Below are positions 1-50,412 of a stretch of DNA of 64,000 nucleotides, one piece after another. Below the pieces are notes generated by a model that saw nothing but the letters and a program-made list of their open reading frames with translations, made no database searches and had not been told where the DNA came from. Numbering within the stretch: the stretch's first letter is position 1; the number at the start of each line of letters is the position of its first letter. The translations under genes and the position numbers were made by a program. The stretch comes from Candidatus Iainarchaeum sp. (GTDB lineage: Archaea > Iainarchaeota > Iainarchaeia > Iainarchaeales > VGJJ01): contig JAZDJQ010000018.1 in NCBI GenBank assembly GCA_043803765.1, positions 64,001-128,000 on the forward strand. The letters run 5' to 3'.

Positions 1-423
1 CATACTCGCTAATCCGGTAAAAAGGAAATGACTATTTTCGTCCTGTTCAAAAGAAGGTGTATTGATTCGTGTAAACGCGATTGGAACAAACACTTCCTCT
101 TGTGCCGTTGAAACTCTAATTTGTCCAGTGAAAGAATCGCCTAATTGTAAATAGTTGAGAGGAAGGGCATAGACGGTAATAATTTTGTGTGATTTTCCAG
201 GAATAGTAGCATATCCTTCTTCCGTTGAAAAATCCAAAGTAAATGGACCAATAGGAGAAAAGGAAAAGGTTTGGGATTGTGTTTGAGTATTTGTAATAGT
301 GAGAGGAATGGCGGTTGGAATCGTTCCGCTCATTTTAATGATTGAAAGGGGGGCCTCGACTGAGAGTCCACGTACAAACGTGAGGGCCAAGAAGAATGCC
401 AGTACGAGAATGACTAACCGCAT
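1..423 (-). CDS. Secreted/surface protein, 3'-truncated at the window edge
   Basis: Hand-translated open frame from ATG 423 to the edge (MRLVILVLAFFLALTFVRGLSVEAP...), with a signal-peptide-like N-terminus and beta-rich sequence; not in the ORF track. Confidence 0.7.
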   Translation of the reverse strand, partial: MRLVILVLAFFLALTFVRGLSVEAPLSIIKMSGTIPTAIPLTITNTQTQSQTFSFSPIGPFTLDFSTEEGYATIPGKSHKIITVYALPLNYLQLGDSFTGQIRVSTAQEEVFVPIAFTRINTPSFEQDENSHFLFTGLASM

Positions 424-522
424 TTTGTTTGACACACCAACCACCTTTCACTTATTCATGTGAATACACTACATAGTGTGGAGGTTCTATTTAAAGATTG
501 GCAGTATTTTAATAAATCCCCT

Positions 523-969
523 ATGCTCGATGAATTCATCGAAAATACCGAGGGCATAAGTGCCCAAATTCTATCATTTGACGAAGAAGTAGCTACTTGT
601 AAGCAGGCCCAGGCCCTCGAAAAGACCATTCCCATAGTCAAAACAATCGTTTTAACCCACACGGAAGGGCATCTTCTTGCAATTCTCCTATCCAATGATA
701 AAGTGGATTATGGGGCGATTCAGCAATTAACAGGCAAAAAGGAAGTGCGCCTTGCCACGCATGAGGAAGTAGAACCGTGCACCGGATACAAAGTAGGAGG
801 AGTACCCCCTATTAGCATCTATGGAATACCTACTCTTCTTGATGAAAAAGTACTATCCCACCATTGGGTGTTAGCAGGAGGAGGAGACTCGTTTAGTTTA
901 CTCAAAATACAATCCAATGACATCCGCACATATGGATTTGAAGTCAACGTCGCACGCATTACAAAGTAA
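523..969 (+). CDS. YbaK/EbsC (INS superfamily) aminoacyl-tRNA deacylase
   Basis: IVKTIV motif and TGYKVGGVPPI...AGGGD typical of YbaK/ProX; ATG 523 chosen over GTG 460. Confidence 0.85.
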   Translation: MLDEFIENTEGISAQILSFDEEVATCKQAQALEKTIPIVKTIVLTHTEGHLLAILLSNDKVDYGAIQQLTGKKEVRLATHEEVEPCTGYKVGGVPPISIYGIPTLLDEKVLSHHWVLAGGGDSFSLLKIQSNDIRTYGFEVNVARITK

Positions 970-1002: not shown

Positions 1003-1386
1003 TTAGCAGAAAGAAGTAGTGCAGTAAAAACCAAACCCATTTGAGTGATAATAAAAATCAAGAGTAGTGTGCACAGGAGCAGTCTGAGGATAATAATACC
1101 CGTAATTCCCATAATTTCCATACATGGAATAGGAAGGATACACCCCATAGGAACCGGACAAATACCCCGGAGGATAATATCTTCCACCGCCTAAAACAGG
1201 ATAACCCGAATTAGGATAATACGCATAATACGTCCACCCCTGATTCATTCCAGAAGGTTGGTAAAATGATCCGGCATACAATTGGTTAGACTGATACGTC
1301 TCAGGAACATACGCAGGCCACGCAGAGACCAATGAAGAAAAAGAAAGAAGAATCATCGCCAACCCAAAAAAACGAATAAAACTCAT
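1003..1386 (-). CDS. Secreted Tyr/Gly/Pro-rich low-complexity protein
   Basis: Signal peptide ending VSA-W; Y/G/P-rich mature region; GGAGG upstream. Confidence 0.7.
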   Translation of the reverse strand: MSFIRFFGLAMILLSFSSLVSAWPAYVPETYQSNQLYAGSFYQPSGMNQGWTYYAYYPNSGYPVLGGGRYYPPGYLSGSYGVYPSYSMYGNYGNYGYYYPQTAPVHTTLDFYYHSNGFGFYCTTSFC

Positions 1387-1486
1387 TCACGTTCCTCCGT
1401 TAATAATAGTCCCTTTGAAGTATAAAAGGAAAACCATTTTATGTATACAATTTTCGGTATTGGACGAAAAATGGAGTGAACCAAAA

Positions 1487-1975
1487 TCAATCAAAACAGG
1501 GGCAATCCCCTACATCATCCCAAAAATCATCCCAAGAATCCTCAAATTTATCCCATTCGCCTTTCTTAATAGTCTTTTGAGCCGATTTAGGATTACCCAC
1601 CCCTTTGTATGAAATAATCCCATTCGTCTTAACCGTACCATGCCGATTGAGATAATTACTCTTATTCACGGGTGATTTTTCTTTTTTAATCGTAATACCA
1701 GTTGCAACAGTAGGATTGGAAAAGCAAGGTTGCCCGCAGGGAAGGGAAGGAACCAAATACGCAGGAGCGGAAATGGGGGCAATATAGACATTCGCCACAA
1801 TAGGAGGATACGTTCCCGCATGTACCGGAATCACTCCTGTCGTATACGAAGGATAAACCTTGTGATAATAAGAAGGAGCAGAAGGAACGGAAAAAGAATA
1901 CTCTTCAGCATGGGCGGAAGCATTCACCCCAAGCAGAACAAAGAAGACCAAACCAAAAAAGAAAAAAGGACGCAT
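1487..1975 (-). CDS. Secreted Pro/Tyr-rich protein with acidic Trp/Cys C-terminus
   Basis: Signal peptide (ASA-H); C-terminus WDKFEDSWDDFWDDVGDCPCFD. Confidence 0.65.
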   Translation of the reverse strand: MRPFFFFGLVFFVLLGVNASAHAEEYSFSVPSAPSYYHKVYPSYTTGVIPVHAGTYPPIVANVYIAPISAPAYLVPSLPCGQPCFSNPTVATGITIKKEKSPVNKSNYLNRHGTVKTNGIISYKGVGNPKSAQKTIKKGEWDKFEDSWDDFWDDVGDCPCFD

Positions 1976-2070
1976 ATCAAATAACCAATGGACCCATTCC
2001 CATTATAACAAATACACCTAAAACGAAGAAAAAAAAAGAGAGCAGGGAGTAATACTCCCGCCTGCTACTA

Positions 2071-2250
2071 CTAGAAGTCAAATGGCTTGAGGGTCTTGCG
2101 CCCGCCACCATTACAACGATCCACGGCGCGTTTCATCAGCATCTCAACCTGGTCGTTAAGCGCATCATACGCGTCGGAGGACATCATCATGTTCTTTCCA
2201 CGAATGAAATCCGCTACCTTGGACTTGACAATGAATGTTTCATTTGCCAT
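2071..2250 (-). CDS. Short histone-fold protein (DUF1931/face-to-face or Bd0055-like type)
   Basis: 59 aa MANETFIVKSKV...RKTLKPFDF, with the RKT..D end motif and a truncated alpha3; GGAGG SD upstream. Confidence 0.8.
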   Translation of the reverse strand: MANETFIVKSKVADFIRGKNMMMSSDAYDALNDQVEMLMKRAVDRCNGGGRKTLKPFDF

Positions 2251-2390
2251 AACGTCATTCCTCCCAACCACCCGCTACATTAGGCGAAGCGAGCAATCAC
2301 GAAAGTAGAATGGCTCAAAGTATAAAAGGGTTCACCCCCGCAACACTAAAATTTGGGGGTTATAAGGCAAAGTAAAGGGAAATAGAAAAA

Positions 2391-2453
2391 TACGCCGTCC
2401 GTTCGCCCATCATTCATCATGATTCAGGAAGATGCATCTCGTCATCCGGCGTA
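2391..2453 (-). ncRNA. Box C/D methylation-guide sRNA
   Basis: Minus strand reads TACGCCG-G-ATGACGA(C)-GATGCATCTTC-CTGA(D')-ATC-ATGATGA(C')-ATGATGGGCGAA-CGGA(D)-CGGCGTA; perfect 7-bp terminal stem. Confidence 0.75.
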
Positions 2454-2494
2454 ACACGTTTAACGGGAACAACCCGATAAAAAACCAGCACTCT

Positions 2495-5400
2495 TTACTG
2501 AACGGGTTCAATAGGCTTGAATCCAAACGTATCATAGTATTGAAGAAGCTTGAATAAGTAGGCCGCTCCAACAAAAAACACGACTTCTAAAATAGCAAAA
2601 ACAAAACCATAGGATAAACCAAACTGCCACCCCACCAAGAGGGGAATGGAAAAGAAAACGAGACCCAGCATTGAGCGCAACAACCTCTGCCGCTGCCTCT
2701 CATTATCCGCTACAATTCGAAAGAACACACGACGAAATACCATGTCGGATGCAATCCCGGCTAACGTACAAAGACCCAAGAAAATGGCATTCGCACTTGG
2801 TCCGGTTACTTCAACCAAATCAGACGCGGACAAGATAAGATGATTAGCAATGTTGTTGATTGTTTCAATTATCTGTTCGGGAATCACAATACCCGTTCCC
2901 ACTATTTCCAGTTCACCATTATCATTCGTCTTCACCACACCGCTCAAAGGAGGAACAAGAGGTACAATTGTATTATCCGTTTTGTTATTGGAAGGAATAG
3001 ATTCTGAAACCAACAAGAATGAAAAAGATGATTCGCTGGAATTACCATATTCGTCTTCCGAAATGATAGTTACGTCAACCGGAGTATGCGTTGATTGAAA
3101 TGAAAGAATATCCGCATCCACATTCACCACGCATTCCAAAAAATCGTTTGCGGATTGCGTGCAGACGGGTTCATTCTTGTTCGCTGCCCCATTGATCAGC
3201 ACCTCTGCCTTTGGAGAGGAACCGAATCCAGAATAGTCCTGTAAAACAAAATGAATGCTCTCTGGAAAATAAGAGACAGAACCCGTTGGTTCATAACTTT
3301 CAATGTGGGGCCCATGAAAATCAAGCACCATTCCTGAAATATTTTTTACTGCTGTCGAAAAACCATCCTCATTTCCCTCGAATCGAATAGAGTATTCCCC
3401 TTCAGGCAAATCATCCGGAATGGCAACAGGAGTGTTACAATTGAATGCCAAATCCGCCATCGTACAGATTGACTCTACCCCTTCATAATTCGCCACATCA
3501 ATCGAACCCAAATCAACTACTTTTCCATCAGTGCCCTCCGCCAACATTCTCACATCTAAATCAATAGCAAATGTAGCATGATTCATTACGAATACAGCAT
3601 TCTGTATTGCTTGGTTTTGTGAGTGCCAGACCGCCCCGGGAGAAGGATACGAAACCGTTACATCGAGTTGACTTCCATCCACGGTGATTTTTCCATCCCC
3701 GCTTGTAATCTCTGCCATTTCTCCTGCCGAATCCATGACATTTACTTTCAAATAAAAACTCCCCTCGGGAACGAGGAGCCCTTTCAACGGATTAAAAATG
3801 ACAATATTGATGGTGCAGTTATCTGAATCACCTGAAGCGGTACAGGAAATGTTGAATGCATTATCCACATTCCTCCATTCGTTTATCGTATAGTCTTCTC
3901 CCCCAGGGGTCAATCCAAAATACACTTTAGCATAATGCGCATCTCCAATATCCGGATCCGTAATAGTGAAAGCAACCGCCTTCTTGAACGGAGTATCAGA
4001 TGGATTCGAAAGAGTATTCTGCCACACTGCCGAAACAGGAATCAAATTAGACAACACAGGAGGAGAATTGGAAAAATCAAGAATATTGGAAAGAACAATC
4101 GCTGTTCCCGCAGAATTCCTCCGCATGAATGCAATCGTCTCATTCGTAAGACCTGATGCAGAATACGAACCAAAAAAATCCCCTCCGCCAATCAACTCAT
4201 CATCATAGTTTCCATGAGAGAGCGGACGAAAAGAATAGTGTTCCTGCCCATGAAAATCAATGAATAAACCAAGTATATGACGGTTGCCCGCATCATCTCC
4301 TTCTGCAATCAAAACAGCTTTGTCTTGGTCGGACTGAGAAACAAATGGAATAACTACTTCCCCAATATTTAATCCATCTATTGATGAAACCCACGAGGAA
4401 ATATTCTTCCATCCATCTCCAGAGGAACCATCCCCTGAAGGAGAAATGGAAATACTTCCATCCATGCACGTTCCGGATGGACAACGATACGCCGCTACCT
4501 CATTTCCCATCCGCGATACTACAAGAAGAGAATCATTCCCATACGCGATGGAAGGAAAAGAAAACGCCCCACTCCCAAGAAGGACTGGAGCCAACCATGA
4601 ACCATCCCCTACGTTGAATAAAGAAAAATAAAGGGATGAATCGGGTCCACTCGAATATGCATCCAACCAAACTGCATACACTCTTCCAAGATTATCAACT
4701 GCAATCTCGGGGAAACGAGGATTACCATTATGAACTCCTTGCGTAATATCCGGCCCACTTAATGAAGAAAACCAAGCACTATGCGAAGCACAAGAAGATG
4801 ACACTAAACAATACTTGTGAAATATTCCATCAATGCGCAACGCATCATTGATCTGCATATCATCAAAGAGAATATGCACATACTGTCCGTCCACTGCAAT
4901 CTTGGGACGACCAAATGAATACTTCCAAGTGAAAGAAGGAGCCCCCGTTTCATCCAAAAGTGGATCCAAAATGCGGGTGGGAGTCTGCCATGAGGAAGCA
5001 CTACCACAATTTCCTGATGCGCATTGAGTATAGTAGATGGTGCTCTTCTCATTCGTTTTATCCTTCACCGTAAACGCAAGATGAACGGTTCCATCCGGAT
5101 CAATGGCAAGAGAAGCATCGATAACACTTACTCGGGAAAAAGAGGTGCCCGCGGGAAGAGAAGCAGGAGGAATAATGGATTTCAATGAAAAACCATCCGA
5201 CCAACCCGATATTCCAGAGGAAGACATCGCAATCATAGGACCTGCTGCATTGTAGTAAACCCCAACCCACTTACCAGTAGGAAGACGCACGATCGAGTTG
5301 GAACGAGAATCATTCTCGGCATACATCCCCGATCCAGTAATGGTATCGGACTCGGAAACATCTACCATCCAAACATTGGGATTGAGAAGCGGATCGCAGT

Positions 5401-9217: not shown

Positions 9218-9428
9218 TACATTATCCCAATAAGCAGGGTGAGGGGAAAAAAATCCGCTCACCCCCCTTTTCTTTTTCCCCATTTTTACCCACCTAATAA
9301 AAATCGCCCCCTTGTAAGAATAATACCGTTTACAGGGACTCGTGGCTTATTCCCGCCTTTTTCATACGGTGATACCGAGGGAGTATGCAGTAGGTTTTAA
9401 CAAACCCACGATAAATGAATACATGCAG

Positions 9429-9502
9429 GGACCCGTAGCTCAGCCTGGTAGAGCAGCGTTCTTATACAGCGTCCGTCGGAGGTTCAAATCCTCCCGGGTC
9501 CA
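9429..9502 (+). tRNA. tRNA-Ile(UAU)
   Basis: Cloverleaf: acceptor GGACCCG/CGGGTCC-A, D stem GCTC/GAGC, anticodon arm GCGTT-CTTATAC-AGCGT, T arm GGAGG-TTCAAAT-CCTCC. Confidence 0.85.
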
Positions 9503-9570
9503 CTTTCAATATTGCCCCGCTGAAAAAAAATTCCCTAATTTTAAGAATCCGCCACTCAATGACCTTCGGG

Positions 9571-25986: not shown

Positions 25987-26084
25987 AAAACCGAAAAGAA
26001 ACTTGCTCCATAAAAGGATGACCCTAAAAAAAACATATTCCGGAAGTCCAACCAAAAAAAGAACCCCTGATAGCAAAAACAAAA

Positions 26085-26156
26085 TAGGCCCGGGCAGAGT
26101 CGAACTGCCGTCTCGACCGTGTGAAGGTCGTGTGATAACCGTTACACTACGGGCCT
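26085..26156 (-). tRNA. tRNA-Val(CAC)
   Basis: AGGCCCG/CGGGCCT-A; anticodon arm CGACC-TTCACAC-GGTCG; T arm GGCAG-TTCGACT-CTGCC. Confidence 0.95.
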
Positions 26157-26263
26157 TTCCTCTCAAAGAAAGGAGCAAAAAAGGCTTATAAAACACGGGT
26201 AGGAAACCCATCCCTTTTGAGAAGAGGGCGAACTTATAAATCAAAAAGGAGTGTTTCACTCGC

Positions 26264-27247
26264 ATGACACGGCATACTTTTTGGATACTCGGATTTCTTC
26301 TATTACTTACTCCAGTGTTAGCCCTTGAATTGGACGCCCCTGAACAAGTCCCATCGTATTCCCCCTTCACGTTCAGAGTGATTCTCCCCTCAACCGAGGC
26401 ATTTTCTACCGCCACGATTATGTTCGACAATATCGGGGTTGCCACGATTTACAACTCAGGAACGTGTCTCATTCAACCTGACTGGATTCCTTTTTTGATT
26501 CACTGCAAAACGTACGATACCGACCCAAAAACAAACGAAGGATTAACTGCCATCATTACGCACACGGGATTTGCTAAAGGAATTCATACCATTTCAATTC
26601 AATCACAAGGAATAGAAGGAAGCTTTTCCAGCACCGAAGTGAAAGTGATTACCCCGCTCGAAGACACGTATAAGGATGAGTTAAATAGTGAGATAACAAA
26701 CGTAAAAGGACGCGTGGAAGAGTTAGAAACATTTTCGCAAGGAGCCCAGCAAAAAATAAATGAAACACAATCCCAACTCGAACAAACGATTCATGAAACA
26801 GGAGAAAAAATCAACACGCTCAAAGACTTGTTAAGTGCCCAATTCAAAAATGCAGAAAAAGTAGTCCAACAATCAAGTGAAACGTTTACCATTCCCTTCT
26901 TATCAGGCAATGGCACGGGGCTTGCAACAGGAGTGAACGCACCCGTATTAGGCATTCTCCTGATTGTAGCATTTGCATCATTAATCCTATTTGCAGGAAT
27001 AGGAAGGAAAAAGAAAACAGGTTTTGGAGGAATCATCCCAAAAGACAATACTCCATTCCTCGCAGGAAATTTAGACACACTATTCAAAGGACTACCCGAA
27101 AAAAAGAATATGGAAGAACGAATTTCTCCCCAACCCAAAAAATGGTCGTCGGATGTAGAAGAGGAATTGCGTGATGATATTGAAAACAATCCGCCTGAAA
27201 AAAGCAAAGTGAACTTTGGTGACCTTATTCGGAATGAAAGGGATTGA
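26264..27247 (+). CDS. Secreted Ig-like plus coiled-coil protein with TM anchor
   Basis: Signal peptide (VLA-L), coiled coil, TM and charged cytoplasmic tail. Confidence 0.75.
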   Translation: MTRHTFWILGFLLLLTPVLALELDAPEQVPSYSPFTFRVILPSTEAFSTATIMFDNIGVATIYNSGTCLIQPDWIPFLIHCKTYDTDPKTNEGLTAIITHTGFAKGIHTISIQSQGIEGSFSSTEVKVITPLEDTYKDELNSEITNVKGRVEELETFSQGAQQKINETQSQLEQTIHETGEKINTLKDLLSAQFKNAEKVVQQSSETFTIPFLSGNGTGLATGVNAPVLGILLIVAFASLILFAGIGRKKKTGFGGIIPKDNTPFLAGNLDTLFKGLPEKKNMEERISPQPKKWSSDVEEELRDDIENNPPEKSKVNFGDLIRNERD

Positions 27248-27309
27248 ATTGGTTTTCGCATCCATCTCCTGCTCCTTTAAATGTATTTCAACACCAAGTT
27301 CCTGTATCT

Positions 27310-27393
27310 GCAGGAGTAGCGAAGCGGTCAAACGTGTTGGCCTTAGAAGCCAATGGCTTAGTGCCTTCGGAGGTTCGAATCCTCCCTCCTGCA
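27310..27393 (+). tRNA. tRNA-Leu(UAG)
   Basis: GCAGGAG/CTCCTGC-A; TTGGC-CTTAGAA-GCCAA; long variable arm. Confidence 0.95.
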
Positions 27394-27425
27394 TTAAATT
27401 CGTATCAAAAAAAATGGAAAAAAAA

Positions 27426-27701
27426 GGCTCCGTGGTATAGCTGGATAATTTCAACGGTCGCCACGACGAGCTATTGGGTAGGGTTTTCAATCCTATTGTA
27501 GACCAATCTGCTGCATGCCCGCGTGGTGCAGTCGGCCGATTTCGCACGGCCACCACGAGGGACTACATGGTTGGATTTTCAATCCAACAGTAGGTCAATC
27601 ATTGTACACTGCCTGTGTGGTGTAGTCCGCCGTTTTCGTCCGGCGGCACCGACGGACTAACGCAGGATTTAACAATCCTGCAATAGGCCAAATAAAATAC
27701 G
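27426..27701 (+). repeat. Tandem array of three ~92-bp units, each a tRNA 5'-end copy plus a structured module
   Basis: Units start at 27426, 27517 and 27611 with GGCTCCGTGGTATAGCT / GCCCGCGTGGTGCAGTC / GCCTGTGTGGTGTAGTC, versus tRNA-Arg GCCCGTGTGGTGTAGTC at 27702; shared covarying hairpins. Confidence 0.85.
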
Positions 27702-27775
27702 GCCCGTGTGGTGTAGTCTGGATAGCATAAGGGCTTCCGGAGCCCTTGACCTGGGTTCAAATCCCAGCACGGGTG
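27702..27775 (+). tRNA. tRNA-Arg(CCG)
   Basis: GCCCGTG/CACGGGT-G; AGGGC-TTCCGGA-GCCCT; CTGGG-TTCAAAT-CCCAG. Confidence 0.95.
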
Positions 27776-27856
27776 TCTAGGGGTTGTTTTACAATCCCTT
27801 TACCGTTTTCCCCGGGCTTTTCTGAAAAGGCCGGTTCCGAATTCCAGCACGGGTGT
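27776..27856 (+). mobile_element. tRNA-anchored mini-element with duplicated tRNA-Arg 3' end
   Basis: CCAGCACGGGTGT at 27764 is repeated at 27844, preceded by TTTTCCCCGGGCTTTTCTGAAAAGGCCGGTTCCGAAT. Confidence 0.7.
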
Positions 27857-28269
27857 TATCTTTCTTTCAGAGGAAAGAACGAATACTAGAAACTGGATTG
27901 AGTGATACAATCCAATTTCCAATTAGAAAAAAGAGTTTTCCTCCACTCTTGAGAAGGAAAATTATTCCGATGAGGAATTGAATAAAACATATTATACTTA
28001 GCGCAAGCAACACTCCCGTTATGCGATGACGGGAAAGAAAAGGCCATTTTTCTTCAAGTGAAGCACGAACAAGACCAATGTATACGCTAAGACTGACACG
28101 AAAACAATAGATTTTTTCTTCCACATGAGCGGAAGCTGAATGAAAGAATGCTAGGAACGACATGATGAAACACCTATTTGGAGAGTATTACGCCAAAAAC
28201 TAATTTTTGGACGCACCAGCATGAAAAAAGAAACCCTTTATATGGGTTGATTTGCGAGACTATAACATA

Positions 28270-28863
28270 ATGAAACGAATTTCGTTAGAAAACATTCCCT
28301 TTTCATCCCCGCAAAAAGGATATGCTCCGAGGGAAGACTCATGGCTGCTTGCCCACCACCTCCCCAATGCGAAAGGAAAAAAATGCCTCGATATGGGTTG
28401 CGGAAGCGGAATACAGACAGCCGCACTGTTGGTGAATGAAGCAGAAGAAGTATGGTGCGTTGACATCAATCAGGATGCATTAGAAAAAACAAAAAAAATA
28501 GTCGAGAAGTATTTTCCAGGAAAAAAAACACATTATGTCCAATCCAATTTATTTGAAACGATTCTAAATGAAAAATTTGATATTATTGTATTTAATCCAC
28601 CCTATGTTCCAAGCGAAAAAATAAAATGGATGGAAGTAGACGGAGGAAAAAAAGGAAGGGAAATCATTGACGCATTCATTGAAAAAATTCCTTATCATCT
28701 AAATGAAAAAGGAGAATGCTATCTTCTTCAATCATCCCTCAATGGAATACCTATTACCGAAAAAAAAATACGAAAGCATGGAATGAACGGAGTAATTATT
28801 GCACGGCAGAAAATAGCTTTTGAAGAATTGATTATCTTTCGCATCAGTAAAAACAACCTTTAA
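28270..28863 (+). CDS. HemK2/Mtq2-like N5-glutamine methyltransferase
   Basis: YAPREDS, LDMGCGSG, FNPPY, DGG..GR. Confidence 0.9.
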   Translation: MKRISLENIPFSSPQKGYAPREDSWLLAHHLPNAKGKKCLDMGCGSGIQTAALLVNEAEEVWCVDINQDALEKTKKIVEKYFPGKKTHYVQSNLFETILNEKFDIIVFNPPYVPSEKIKWMEVDGGKKGREIIDAFIEKIPYHLNEKGECYLLQSSLNGIPITEKKIRKHGMNGVIIARQKIAFEELIIFRISKNNL

Positions 28864-28890
28864 ATGTACTTTCACCTGCAAATGCATGAC

Positions 28891-28974
28891 GCATGCGTAC
28901 CCAAGCGGTCTAAGGGGCCAGACTCAGACTCTGGTGGCTTAGTGCCTTCGGAGGTTCGAATCCTCCCGCGTGCA
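28891..28974 (+). tRNA. tRNA-Leu(CAG)
   Basis: GCATGCG/CGCGTGC-A; CCAGA-CTCAGAC-TCTGG; variable arm identical to tRNA-Leu(UAG). Confidence 0.95.
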
Positions 28975-29083
28975 TGTCCAGTTCCGATTGGACCAACCGG
29001 CGTAGCGTGATGGCATGCCATCACTCATCCATTTTTCCCCGGGCTTTTCACAAAAGGCCGGTTCTGAATCCTCCCGCGTGCAT
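28975..29083 (+). mobile_element. tRNA-anchored mini-element with duplicated tRNA-Leu 3' end
   Basis: GAATCCTCCCGCGTGCAT at 28958 is repeated exactly at 29066; 37-nt terminal motif 34/37 identical to the Arg element. Confidence 0.75.
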
Positions 29084-29191
29084 CGCGGGTTTCGCCCGGT
29101 CGAAATGAAGTAGCATTATAACGAACCATAACTCGTTTTCGCTCCTTTTGGGCATTTCATTTAATTACCCCTTTTACTATTCCTTCTTTTA

Positions 29192-29251
29192 GGGAATGAT
29201 GACGTAAACCCCGACTGACGAAAGGATGATGAATTAACTCACGTCTGACCC
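29192..29251 (+). ncRNA. Box C/D methylation-guide sRNA
   Basis: GGG-A-ATGATGA-CGTAAACCCCGA-CTGA-CGAAAGG-ATGATGA-ATTAACTCACGT-CTGA-CCC: four consensus boxes and two 12-nt guides. Confidence 0.9.
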
Positions 29252-29300
29252 GCTTTCTATTTCCATGGGGGTTAAAAACAGGAAAATGGTTTTCTTACGC

Positions 29301-29999
29301 ATGGTTATTACTTTAACGTTAACCCAAGCCGAATCAAAGAAAGTAATAGAAAAATTAAGGGAATACCCTTCTTTACCTATTCCATCCGCGTATGAGAAGG
29401 CACGCCACCAAGTGGGAGATGCACGTGTAACCGTGTATGCGAGCGGAAAAGTGGTTATCCAAGCAAAAAACAACGAAGTGGAAGAAGCCATTCATGAACG
29501 AATAACGAAATGGTTAGGAAATGAATTAGACGAACTAGTGCTTGGAATGGATGAAACAGGAAGAGGAGAACGGCACGGCCCACTCGTGGTAAGCGGAGTG
29601 TTAGGACAGCGCAACCAACTGCGCGCCGTGAGGGACTCTAAAAAAACACACAACATCAAAGGAGCATATCATACTGCAACCCATAAAAGTAAAATGCAAG
29701 TAAGCGTCTCATTCAATGCTGAAACAATTGACGAACTAAGGAGAAAAGGAATCACGCTCAACGAGATGGAAAGCCATGCCATGCAAAAAATACATGAACT
29801 GATTAACGTTTTTTTCCCTGAATCGATCACGATTGCGGATGGAAAACCTCTTAAAAAAGGAATGAAGGGAATTATTTTTCAAGAAAAAGCAGATGACACC
29901 GAACCAAGTGTAGCAGCAGCAAGTATTGTTGCCAAACATACACGAAATGAGAGTGGAGACCAAAATGAACGGAAAACATGGAAGCGAATTGCGGATTAA
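29301..29999 (+). CDS. RNase HII/HIII-family nuclease with N-terminal TBP-like (DUF3378-type) domain
   Basis: VTVYASGKVVIQ N-domain; GMDETGRG, VRDSKK, KAD...VAAASIVAK. Confidence 0.8.
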   Translation: MVITLTLTQAESKKVIEKLREYPSLPIPSAYEKARHQVGDARVTVYASGKVVIQAKNNEVEEAIHERITKWLGNELDELVLGMDETGRGERHGPLVVSGVLGQRNQLRAVRDSKKTHNIKGAYHTATHKSKMQVSVSFNAETIDELRRKGITLNEMESHAMQKIHELINVFFPESITIADGKPLKKGMKGIIFQEKADDTEPSVAAASIVAKHTRNESGDQNERKTWKRIAD

Positions 30000-50319: not shown

Positions 50320-50412
50320 ACGGGGCGGGAGAGATTCAGAACGCACCCCTTTTTCTTTAAAAGAAAAAGTCGCGCCCGGTCAAAAAGAACAACCCATTCA
50401 CAAAAAACAAAA
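50320..50412 (-). mobile_element. tRNA-anchored mini-element with duplicated tRNA-Pro 3' end
   Basis: ACGGGGCGGGAGAGATT at 50320 and 50412; minus strand reads ...CCGGGCGCGACTTTTTC...GAAAAAGGGGTGCG-TTCTG-AATCTCTCCCGCCCCG. Confidence 0.7.

Follow-up and report, generated by a model that had tools for sequence, protein, structure and literature searches.

Three tandem units, U1, U2 and U3, lie between tRNA-Leu(TAG) and tRNA-Arg(CCG) in the window, that is, the whole 64,000-nt stretch of DNA that was analysed. The features of the window are listed in Table 1. The sequence was as the first-pass annotation had described it: the units are 91, 94 and 91 nt long, abut tRNA-Arg(CCG), and each opens with a copy of the 5′ end of this tRNA. 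The mismatches to the first 17 nt of the tRNA rise outwards from U3 to U1, which marks the outermost unit as the oldest. The structures decay with age as well. U1 has the weak hairpin A that had been noted before, together with a mismatched hairpin B.

Table 1. Features of the array at tRNA-Arg(CCG) and related modules in the window
Feature	Position	Strand	Parts and remarks
Single decayed unit, U1-U3 family	9335..9427	+	Upstream of tRNA-Ile(TAT) 9429-9503; orthologous locus in six genomes
tRNA-Leu(TAG)	27309..27394	+	ARAGORN, Rfam; locus comparison
U1, oldest unit	27426..27516	+	91 nt; target copy 27426-27442, 7/17 mismatches; degenerate hairpin A; linker 27460-27474; hairpin B 27477-27497; 3′ motif 27498-27506
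U2	27517..27610	+	94 nt; target copy 27517-27533, 2/17 mismatches; hairpin A 27534-27551; linker 27552-27566; hairpin B 27570-27588; 3′ motif 27589-27598
U3, youngest unit	27611..27701	+	91 nt; target copy 27611-27627, 1/17 mismatches; hairpin A 27628-27645; linker 27646-27659; hairpin B 27662-27681; 3′ motif 27682-27691; A-rich tail 27692-27701
U3 hairpin B	27662..27681	.	AT-rich apex centred 30.5 nt before tRNA +1
tRNA-Arg(CCG)	27702..27775	+	Intact, presumed repeatedly hit target; ARAGORN, Rfam
Module 3′ of tRNA-Arg(CCG)	27776..27856	+	Hairpin 27779-27799; T-rich hairpin 27812-27834; tRNA 3′-end copy from T-loop onward 27835-27856; repeat families D5-D7 among evidence
Further hairpin, hairpin-B-like	27889..27919	+	Inverted repeat I2; possibly an older decayed downstream module
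Related element directly 3′ of tRNA-Leu(CAG)	28976..29082	+	Hairpin A variant 28976-28993 (TTCCG loop, CGG linker); hairpin B 29007-29024; T-rich hairpin 29037-29061; tRNA 3′-end copy 29062-29082
Related element 3′ of tRNA-Pro(CGG)	50320..50389	-	tRNA 3′-end copy 50320-50341

The unit-to-unit repeats were recovered by a repeat search as families D1-D6 (73-90% identity, spacing 91-94), and the hairpin arms were recovered too. The pattern formed by the hairpin-B 3′ arm and TAGRYCAA occurred three times in the window, against 0.16 expected, and none of 100 shuffles reached three. Tandem Repeats Finder returned no rows for the array because U1-U3 are only 54-68% alike over the core. An assembly artefact seems an unlikely source of the array, since a repeat that had been collapsed or expanded would not give units so diverged, and the separate genomes G002, G005, G006 and G007 contain similar arrays. 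In a search of sequencing runs, none contained more than 0.05 of the sampled words, and no RNA run was listed. When positions 26000-29500 were scanned against Rfam (E up to 10), only tRNAs scored above threshold. A match to sX4 at 27301-27486 reached 16 bits against a threshold of 70 and was attributed to chance. The core also bears a loose resemblance to the anticodon arm, variable loop and T arm of a tRNA. The reading as a tRNA pseudogene was rejected: hairpin A has a loop of 6 nt on a 6-bp stem, and neither ARAGORN nor Rfam called a tRNA at this position.

The array is not the only such structure in the window. A mirror-image module, missed in the first-pass annotation, lies downstream of tRNA-Arg(CCG), a single unit of the same family lies at tRNA-Ile(TAT), and related elements are found at tRNA-Leu(CAG) and tRNA-Pro(CGG). 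The unit at tRNA-Ile(TAT) is decayed in the present genome. Across the genome, 3′-end copies lie 44-200 nt downstream of 11 of the 46 tRNAs, and several other tRNAs have a 5′-end copy upstream. Five of the six strict hairpin-A motifs of the genome fall within 350 nt of a tRNA, compared with 3.5% of the genome.

These units belong to a repeat family. Its core of about 63 nt consists of hairpin A, whose loop is TTTCG, followed by a conserved linker, by hairpin B and by a TAGGCC-like motif. The apex of hairpin B is AT-rich, a GTAG/CTAC pair flanks this hairpin, and some copies have A-rich tails. The list of open reading frames has only short frames across the units. Homologous modules, sought beyond the array, were present both elsewhere in the genome and in sister genomes. 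A profile of U1-U3 detected three further units in the genome (E = 1.5e-11, 3.2e-10 and 3.6e-5). They are situated directly upstream of tRNA-Arg(TCT), tRNA-Arg(TCG) and tRNA-Ile(TAT), and each starts with the 5′ end of its own tRNA. A covariance model, R1, matched in 21 of 101 related genomes, 17 of 17 in one DPANN genus, with 1-23 matches each; relatives in this genus are titled Candidatus Iainarchaeum. Outside the genus the family is present almost nowhere; G017, G028, G051 and G079 are the further genomes that bear the element. In a collection of 185,579 species, an 18-base core motif was found in 35 stretches by motif match alone, where about 17 would be expected by chance if base frequencies were equal. 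Of these stretches, 32 are in 11 archaeal MAG assemblies (two titled Candidatus Iainarchaeum) and three are bacterial singletons. Among viral contigs, a 16-base motif occurred in six stretches, none of which was confirmed by the model; the best was a partial match with E = 0.059. A literature search found no described element of the same layout.

The expectation that family matches sit at tRNA 5′ ends was correct for the Arg and Ile units, but the matches extend to 3′ ends, 5S rRNA, a protein gene and loci without a tRNA. Relative to the gene next to them, copies point in either direction; both tRNA ends are used, and some copies have no tRNA within their 3-kb locus.

We compared the spacer between tRNA-Leu(TAG) and tRNA-Arg(CCG) at seven loci, and four of them were empty: 14 nt in G003, 16 nt in G010, 17 nt in G013 and 22 nt in G005. 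The occupied spacers measured 95 nt in G011 (a partial unit), 166 nt in G004 (one unit) and 307 nt in the present genome (three units). The tRNA-Arg(CCG) of G005, with its empty upstream site, is 100% identical to that of the present genome. The units are thus insertions relative to the empty sites of sister genomes.

The inserted sequences are flanked by repeats specific to their targets. We searched 46 full-length cores for direct repeats with an upstream copy ending 0-6 nt before hairpin A. Such a repeat, with a score of 9 or more, was present at 21 of them; at 14 of the 21 the score was 12 or more, exceeding all controls (maximum 10.5). The repeats are 41, 31, 27, 22, 20, 18, 17, 17, 15, 15 nt long and so on, about 12-41 nt overall. 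Such widely varying lengths speak against reading the units as insertions, being atypical of most transposases, which to our knowledge do not yield them. The 41-nt repeat (copy L009) lies at the end of an ORF, where the first G of the element rebuilds the stop codon. The 31-nt repeat belongs to an array 3′ of a 5S rRNA gene. By the same criterion, no flanking repeats were found at the other 25 cores. Seven of these 25 are inverted, with hairpin A 0-2 nt from the +1 position of a tRNA on the opposite strand, and G015 has two more inverted copies of this type. In G002, one subfamily occurs at both tRNA-Ile(TAT) and tRNA-Arg(TCT), with local flanking repeats at each. Therefore, the repeat is copied from the target and not carried by the element. 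At L009, the best-bounded copy, inspection revealed no terminal inverted repeats, the two ends sharing at most 4 nt in inverted order. Judged by eye, the junctions of the youngest copies share only 0-1 nt of microhomology, which does not favour template switching as the source of the U-type units. It is possible that template switching produced a perfect duplication of about 85 nt 3′ of tRNA-Met in G015.

The three units of the array have independent origins. Over the core, U1 is nearest to a distal unit at tRNA-Arg(TCT) in G007 (identity 0.71), U2 to a copy of G016 in a 3-kb locus where no tRNA was found (0.81) and U3 to a unit at tRNA-Arg(TCG) on contig C9 (0.84), compared with 0.54-0.68 among the three themselves. 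The first-pass annotation had proposed a serial, polarised insertion into the D-arm part of the tRNA with duplication of its 5′ end. This was supported by the empty sister sites, by the copies upstream of other tRNAs, each with the 5′ end of its own tRNA, and by the fact that U1-U3 are not mutual nearest relatives.

Selection on the structure had also been suggested, and we found that hairpins A and B do covary across the family. On 65 sequences, 87.7% of the cells were paired, versus 74.0% after shuffling. The covariation score was 0.352 versus 0.126 for shuffled alignments; none of 500 shuffles reached 0.352, and slid registers gave at most 0.108. The TTTCG loop of hairpin A probably pairs with CGA of the following linker to form a pseudoknot. 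Between loop and linker, T stood with A 88 times, C with G 13 times, C with A twice and T with G once, so that one compensatory class supports the pairing. The predicted folds of U1-U3, the unit of contig C9 and the bare core were stable (z from -2.2 to -4.0). As read from the alignment, the orthologous Arg(TCG) units of G012 and G005 show paired changes in hairpin B. The distance from the hairpin-B apex to the start of the tRNA or tRNA fragment is 30 nt in U1, 32 nt in U2, 30.5 nt in U3 and 29.5 nt in the Ile unit, and native TATA-like hexamers cluster at -35 to -27. From this positioning we infer that the apex is a candidate TATA box.

The idea that base pairing guides insertion fared less well. 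Segments complementary to the unit's own tRNA piece are present in U1-U3, but they are not general across the family. The z score of the flank-linker duplex was -2.5 for U1, -2.9 for U2 and -0.9 for U3; over the family it averaged -0.25 (median -0.05), with 10 of 64 values below -1.64, so the linker segments do not track the host tRNA. A guidance resembling the EBS/IBS pairing of group II introns was likewise not supported, as the linker is a conserved motif regardless of target. The reverse transcriptase domain RVT_1 was detected in none of the 17 genomes of the genus. HDV-like ribozymes have a nested double pseudoknot with a conserved catalytic C between P1.1/P4 and P2. If P4 is left out, the helix order of the units can be made to resemble a minimal HDV-like fold. 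This mapping was rejected: the P1 and P2 strands would lie in the variable flank, and the catalytic position, here the one nucleotide separating the pseudoknot from the helix that follows, has no conserved C (G 36, A 12, T 10, C 4+1 of 65; pair 27/45). The HDV-like fold that had been considered earlier also found no match among ribozyme families in the above Rfam scan.

We consider it likely that a small, apparently non-coding repeat element with two hairpins inserted three separate times into the 5′ part of tRNA-Arg(CCG), and that the array records these events. Each insertion would enter the D-loop-coding region and duplicate its target, which in this array is tRNA positions 1-17. The former 5′ end would stay on the hairpin-A side, and an intact tRNA would be rebuilt on the hairpin-B side. 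If the intact gene remained the preferred target, later insertions would displace older units upstream, where decay would set in; repeated insertion at the intact copy would thus account for the polarity of 7, 2 and 1 mismatches. The same family would act likewise at the T-loop or 3′ end of tRNAs, the 3′ end of 5S rRNA and the stop codon of a protein gene. The flanking repeats may result from staggered cuts or an equivalent copying step, with an enzyme acting in trans. It seems that the hairpins may be required in single-stranded DNA or RNA for movement, and some copies may have been retained by the host as transcribed pre-tRNA leaders.

None of the enzymes considered (reverse transcriptase, Cas1, Y1 and DDE transposase) tracks the family. 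Cas1 (PF01867) had no match in the present genome, which is 93% complete, and was found in one of the 17 genomes of the genus. The Y1 transposase (PF01797) was limited to three of the 17, and the flanks of its genes have different hairpins with TTTA loops. DDE_Tnp_1 was limited to four of the 17; the sole DDE gene of the present genome is IS5-like, not IS1634-like. TnpB is absent from the present genome. No element copies were seen beside the examined transposase and integrase loci, with one partial exception in G007. There, a partial copy lies about 330 nt from an IS200-like gene and belongs to the 3′ end of the neighbouring gene. The genome has three tyrosine recombinases, one of them directly downstream of tRNA-Met, and their loci are without an element copy. 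With regard to a SINE-like retroposon, the target duplication is variable and some copies have A-rich tails, while reverse transcriptase is found in 0 of the 17 genomes; an external one is conceivable.

A bolder version of the insertion reading can be entertained only tentatively. The pseudoknot-plus-hairpin of about 63 nt might be a new kind of mobile nucleic acid without a known transposase. What it recognises, on either strand, would be the geometry of stable-RNA genes rather than their sequence, and it would enter the loop of the first arm (D-loop or T-loop) or the exact gene end. An undescribed copying step would create the long and variable target duplications, and its copies would then have been adopted by the host as conserved, transcribed pre-tRNA leaders with their own TATA box.

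Alternatively, the units could be primarily functional structured RNAs, with their spread being secondary. They might be pre-tRNA leaders or spacers, small RNAs released by RNase P or RNase Z, or a ribozyme. The strong covariation of both hairpins, the compensatory class in the loop-linker pairing, the stable predicted folds and the paired hairpin-B changes between the Arg(TCG) units all agree with this. In G001 and G010, by our count from the flanking sequence, the 5′ fragment is preceded at the usual distance by a TATA-like motif, which would place the unit within the transcript, and RNase P RNA is present for release. At the syntenic tRNA-Ile(TAT) locus of three species, the unit, including the tRNA 5′ copy, is as conserved as the tRNA itself (identity 0.91-0.94 and 0.89-0.95, respectively), with the flanks at the level of random alignments (0.41-0.62). 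This equality points to a function at the host level, which a purely selfish reading would not predict, and the strong conservation of at least one copy suggests a take-over by the host. However, copies in both orientations, at either end of tRNAs, at 5S rRNA, at the stop codon of a protein gene and in 3-kb loci without a tRNA are not expected of such an RNA. The units are also lacking at the same locus in sister species, old copies decay (U1 and the Ile unit of the present genome), and no Rfam family matched. We therefore regard a primary RNA function as unlikely.

It is very unlikely that the units are att-site remnants of integrative elements with tyrosine integrases, accreted after the bodies of the elements were lost. 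The tyrosine recombinases of the genome, including the one 3′ of tRNA-Met, would fit such an origin, and the 3′ end of tRNA-Tyr shows the classical picture, with five copies over 10 kb. The 3′ copies begin in the T-loop, which we take to be a known sublocation of crossover. As far as the cited source covers them, partial tRNA genes derived from integration are common in archaea (PMC9897764). However, one subfamily has different local target copies at different tRNAs, and the ends of 5S rRNA and of an ORF were duplicated too. The repeat length is variable, only about 63-80 nt with uniform boundaries lie between the repeats in dozens of copies, and no integrase gene accompanies any examined copy. 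A single insertion, amplified locally by unequal crossing-over between the 17-nt repeats and diverging later, would be mechanically easy given the direct repeats, and U2 is the second-nearest relative of U1 (0.68), but this course is most improbable, as the nearest relative of each unit is at another locus or genome and the hairpin-A and hairpin-B stems of U2 and U3 differ, matching different subfamilies.

tRNA genes are classical landing sites for kilobase-sized, integrase-bearing elements. Here, a gene-less module of about 63 nt has colonised many tRNA gene ends in a 1-Mb DPANN genome. No tRNA gene was broken because the end that is hit is duplicated. For annotation this is a trap, as the tRNA fragments could be mistaken for pseudogenes or split tRNA genes. 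Through the candidate promoter in hairpin B, the arrays might influence how tRNAs are transcribed, and the polar arrays preserve a dated history of insertion for an uncultured lineage. Should the mechanism be new, it would add a route to DNA insertion with long target duplications, a problem shared with IS1634/IS1549.

Several known systems resemble the family in part. REPs and REPINs with their RAYTs, and the ends of IS200/IS605, are short multi-copy intergenic hairpin repeats in which structure is conserved above sequence. The present family is likewise made of short multi-copy hairpin repeats with more conservation in structure than in sequence, and it has the GTAG/CTAC pair around hairpin B. 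However, Y1 genes occur in so few genomes of the genus, flanked by other hairpins, and we know of no target duplication or tRNA-end targeting by REPs. MITEs are small, non-coding and multi-copy, and can bring regulatory signals to their neighbours, as the promoter-carrying Correia elements do. The present family is also small (about 63 nt), apparently non-coding and multi-copy, with no gene of its own. Unlike MITEs, it lacks terminal inverted repeats, its target duplications vary in length, and no parent insertion sequence was found.

Integrative elements at tRNA genes, as the cited source presents them, similarly come to lie between a partial copy of the tRNA and the intact gene (PMC9897764). 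Their repeat, however, is the att block of a kilobase-scale element with an integrase, whereas here it is copied from the target that was hit. In the part of the casposon literature cited here, the target duplication is 15 bp, and the minimal target consists of that segment plus 18 bp encoding the T-loop of tRNA-Pro (PMC5137440). Casposons and CRISPR spacer integration, as covered by the same source, resemble our case in targeting the end of a tRNA gene and duplicating a short segment while the tRNA stays intact. For casposons it further describes a T-loop-coding region in the recognised site, and a regenerated target that permits directional tandem insertion (PMC5137440). In contrast, Cas1 is missing from the present genome and from 16 of the 17 genomes of the genus. 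The present elements are without terminal inverted repeats and span about 63-80 nt, not kilobases, and their duplication, of variable length (about 12-41 nt), is often located within the 5′ end of the tRNA. For IS1634/IS1549, the cited source reports variable direct repeats of 8-514 bp, states that no mechanistic model exists and places the family preferentially in Euryarchaeota (PMC2266710). These DDE insertion sequences share with our family the long target duplications of variable length. However, inverted termini are lacking in the present elements, no ends in common were detected, and the DDE gene here is IS5-like. Taken together, the element is best placed beside the small non-autonomous repeats and the transposons that target tRNA ends.

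The three-unit array at tRNA-Arg(CCG), which the first-pass annotation had described with a copy of the tRNA 5′ end in each unit, was confirmed; a repeat search recovered the unit-to-unit repeats and both hairpins. Between tRNA-Leu(TAG) and tRNA-Arg(CCG), a 31-nt spacer is followed by three units in head-to-tail order (U1, U2 and U3; 91, 94 and 91 nt). Their starts copy positions 1-17 of tRNA-Arg(CCG), with 7, 2 and 1 mismatches towards the gene. The hairpin-B arm with its 3′ motif occurred three times, against 0.16 expected. A mirror-image layout, absent from that annotation, lies 3′ of the same tRNA.

Positions of the features discussed (G, genomes, with G000 the genome under study; C, contigs; L, extracted loci)
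Feature	Position	Strand	Content
tRNA-Leu(TAG)	window 27309-27394		
U1	window 27426-27516		outermost unit
U2	window 27517-27610		
U3	window 27611-27701		adjoins the tRNA
tRNA-Arg(CCG)	window 27702-27775		
Downstream module of tRNA-Arg(CCG)	window 27776-27856		hairpin, T-rich hairpin, copy of the tRNA 3′ end from the T-loop onward
Ile unit	window 9335-9427		single unit
tRNA-Ile(TAT)	window 9429-9503	+	
C/D box sRNA matches	window 29192-29251	+	below threshold
tRNA-Tyr(GTA) and five 3′-end copies	G000 C12:125764-135874 (outside window)		
5′-end copies near tRNA-Ser(TGA), tRNA-Ser(GCT)	G000:C7:19295-19310, G000:C18:15855-15870 (outside window)		
Tyrosine recombinase gene	L035 (G000:C14:30991-34488) 1177-2601	-	429 aa
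Y1 transposase gene	L036 (G000:C4:1-2091) 202-693	-	IS200-like, single
5S rRNA gene and array	L025 (G005:C8:8626-11715) 1274-1700		
Inverted modules 5′ of tRNA-Met	L138 5000-5060 (G015), L032 1519-1582 (G008)		
Tandem repeat 3′ of tRNA-Met	L138 (G015:C1:351500-368500) 5140-5330	+	~85 nt, perfect

A profile of U1-U3 revealed three further units in the same 1.02-Mb genome. They lie directly 5′ of tRNA-Arg(TCT), tRNA-Arg(TCG) and tRNA-Ile(TAT), and each begins with the 5′ end of its own tRNA. In a search with the covariance model of the family (R1), matches were found in 21 of 101 related genomes, including all 17 of the genus, at 1-23 matches per genome; outside the genus, four genomes from other families of the same order matched weakly. 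An 18-base exact core motif was present in only 35 stretches of a 185,579-species collection. Of these, 32 came from 11 MAG assemblies of archaea, two bearing the name Candidatus Iainarchaeum, and the other three were bacterial singletons, about the chance level. The motif search gave no confirmed occurrence in viral contigs. The units thus form a real family of miniature structured insertion elements, restricted to the genus, whose members pile up at the ends of tRNA genes by way of target duplication. A literature search at title and abstract level found no account of such elements, and the family has apparently not been described before.

The anatomy of the core was derived from an alignment of 65 copies. 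Hairpin A has a 5-6 bp stem of freely variable sequence and a nearly invariant TTTCG loop, the linker carries CGA and a GGAC-TAC motif, hairpin B has a variable 7-8 bp stem with an AT-rich apex, and a TAGGCC-like motif forms the 3′ end. The tRNA-like 5′ piece is outside the core; it differs by neighbour and is missing at loci without a detected tRNA. Covariation in the core hairpins is strong. Paired cells amounted to 87.7%, against 74.0% in shuffles, and the covariation score was 0.352 against 0.126 (reached by 0 of 500 shuffles; at most 0.108 in slid registers), with an alignment fitted to part of the tested structure and copies related to each other. The hairpin-A loop can also pair with the linker: a TTCCG loop goes with a CGG linker, and the loop-linker combinations counted were T-A (88), C-G (13), C-A (2) and T-G (1). 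There is at least one compensatory event, which may represent one old subfamily split. The inverted modules 5′ of tRNA-Met in G015 and G008 are orthologous; they have hairpin A, linker and outer flank in common and entirely different hairpin-B stems. In this case the modules appear mosaic through exchange between copies.

We surveyed direct repeats around the 46 full-length cores in the loci examined. A repeat scoring at least 9, with its upstream copy ending 0-6 nt before hairpin A, was found for 21 cores; 14 of these scored at least 12, and all controls were lower (maximum 10.5). Repeat lengths included 41, 31, 27, 22, 20, 18 and 17 nt. The 41-nt repeat corresponds to the last part of a protein-coding frame, whose stop codon is rebuilt by the first base of the element. 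The 31-nt repeat comes from an array that follows a 5S rRNA gene; repeated ~19-nt copies of the 5S 3′ end stand between its modules, and the 5S array of G005 consists of three different modules separated in this way. The 3′ ends of tRNA genes carry the same modules or relatives of them, in either orientation, followed by a tRNA copy from the T-loop to the end; 11 of the 46 tRNAs of this genome have a 3′-end copy 44-200 nt downstream. The flanking repeat is therefore a copy of the target, and this copy keeps the hit gene intact. The picture is not a simple one, however: by the scoring criterion used, 25 of the 46 cores had no flanking repeat. Seven of these are inverted, with hairpin A 0-2 nt from the +1 position of an opposite-strand tRNA, and the closed genome G015 has two further such copies. 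In G015 we also observed a perfect ~85-nt tandem repeat of a tRNA end with its downstream module, with a short hairpin-forming junction between the copies; it arose either very recently or by a different route to such duplications.

The units at tRNA-Arg(CCG) are insertions. Among seven genomes compared, the Leu(TAG)-Arg(CCG) spacer is empty in four (14 nt in G003, 16 nt in G010, 17 nt in G013 and 22 nt in G005, whose tRNA-Arg is 100% identical to that of this genome). It contains a partial unit in G011 (95 nt), one unit in G004 (166 nt) and three units here (307 nt). The original spacer precedes U1, so U1 carries the oldest displaced 5′ end, and each later insertion entered the intact gene. 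The three cores are 0.54-0.68 identical, and the nearest relatives of U1, U2 and U3 (0.71, 0.81 and 0.84) are from other loci or genomes. The units are not copies of each other. One subfamily in G002 occupies both tRNA-Ile(TAT) and tRNA-Arg(TCT), flanked each time by a repeat of the local tRNA 5′ end, which is hard to explain without movement. The serial, polarised insertion with 5′-end duplication proposed in the first-pass annotation was upheld; its mechanistic suggestions were not.

A rival explanation is that the family is by nature a functional RNA. U1 and the Ile unit of this genome are degraded, in keeping with hairpins that serve movement and are dispensable to the host. At the tRNA-Ile(TAT) locus of G001, G006 and G010, whose synteny was established from flanking proteins, the unit with its tRNA 5′ copy is 0.90-0.94 identical, which is as conserved as the tRNA (0.89-0.95), and the flanks are at 0.41-0.62. 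In G001 and G010 a TATA-like motif precedes the tRNA-Ile(TAT) fragment at the usual distance (counted by hand from the flank), and RNase P RNA is present. From these observations, the conserved Ile(TAT) unit, at least, is likely to be expressed as a leader and maintained by selection, and RNA function is likely the fate of some copies. The tRNA-Ile with its TAT anticodon is itself an uncommon way of reading AUA. In the native tRNA genes of this genome, an AT-rich TATA-like motif peaks at -34 to -29, and TATA-like hexamers, from a list that took in both hairpin-B apex variants, cluster at -35 to -27 (16 of 40 module-free tRNAs). In U1, U2 and U3 the hairpin-B apex lies 30, 32 and 30.5 nt before the start of the fragment or tRNA that follows, and in the Ile unit the distance is 29.5 nt. 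A promoter role of the apex is plausible, but it leaves unexplained why the hairpin-B stem must pair.

Insertion guided by base pairing to the target had also been suggested. U1 and U2 do show genuine complementarity between tRNA piece and linker (z = -2.5 and -2.9), as do the G006 and G001 Ile units, where a linker variant matches tRNA positions 7-12. Such complementarity is not a property of the family (mean z -0.25, median -0.05; 10 of 64 below -1.64 against about 3 expected). The linker motif is kept whatever the target, and its pairing with the motif that follows hairpin B is about equally good. The mild excess may be a chance fit of common tRNA 5′ sequences to the conserved linker. The HDV-like reading fails on two counts: Rfam gives it no support, and the conserved C is missing.

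Other features were observed in this genome, most of them at tRNA genes. Five 3′-end copies follow tRNA-Tyr(GTA) at 2.2 to 10 kb downstream, several of them followed by the same ~50-nt arm, and one further copy is on contig C9; this is the classical picture of tandemly piled integrative elements. The tyrosine recombinase gene, starting 61 nt downstream of tRNA-Met(CAT), probably marks an integrated element. The Y1 gene downstream of tRNA-Arg(CCT) is flanked by small GC-rich hairpins with TTTA loops, unrelated to the two-hairpin family. The 5′-end copies ~60 nt upstream of tRNA-Ser(TGA) and tRNA-Ser(GCT) are followed by a different hairpin module, and therefore belong to another type of element that behaves in the same way. 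The matches to archaeal C/D box sRNA families (best 25 bits, threshold 39, E 0.06-0.1) may indicate a true C/D box sRNA gene.

No candidate moving enzyme was found among the families searched across the 17 genomes of the genus: reverse transcriptase (RVT_1) matched in none, Cas1 in one, Y1 (IS200-like) transposase in three and DDE_Tnp_1 in four. In this genome TnpB had no match and the DDE gene is IS5-like. None of the transposase or integrase loci examined carried a copy of the element. These negatives are weakened by incomplete MAGs, but G002 (96% complete, 20 copies) also lacks reverse transcriptase, Cas1 and Y1. From two precedents, we infer that insertion would proceed by cuts with a wide stagger, or by some equivalent copying step, carried out by an enzyme acting in trans. 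For long direct repeats of variable length, the precedent is IS1549 and IS1634, whose repeats span 8-514 bp and for which there is no model (PMC2266710). For tRNA-end duplication that permits tandem insertion, it is the casposons, which make a 15 bp duplication at a tRNA end and require the T-loop region (PMC5137440).
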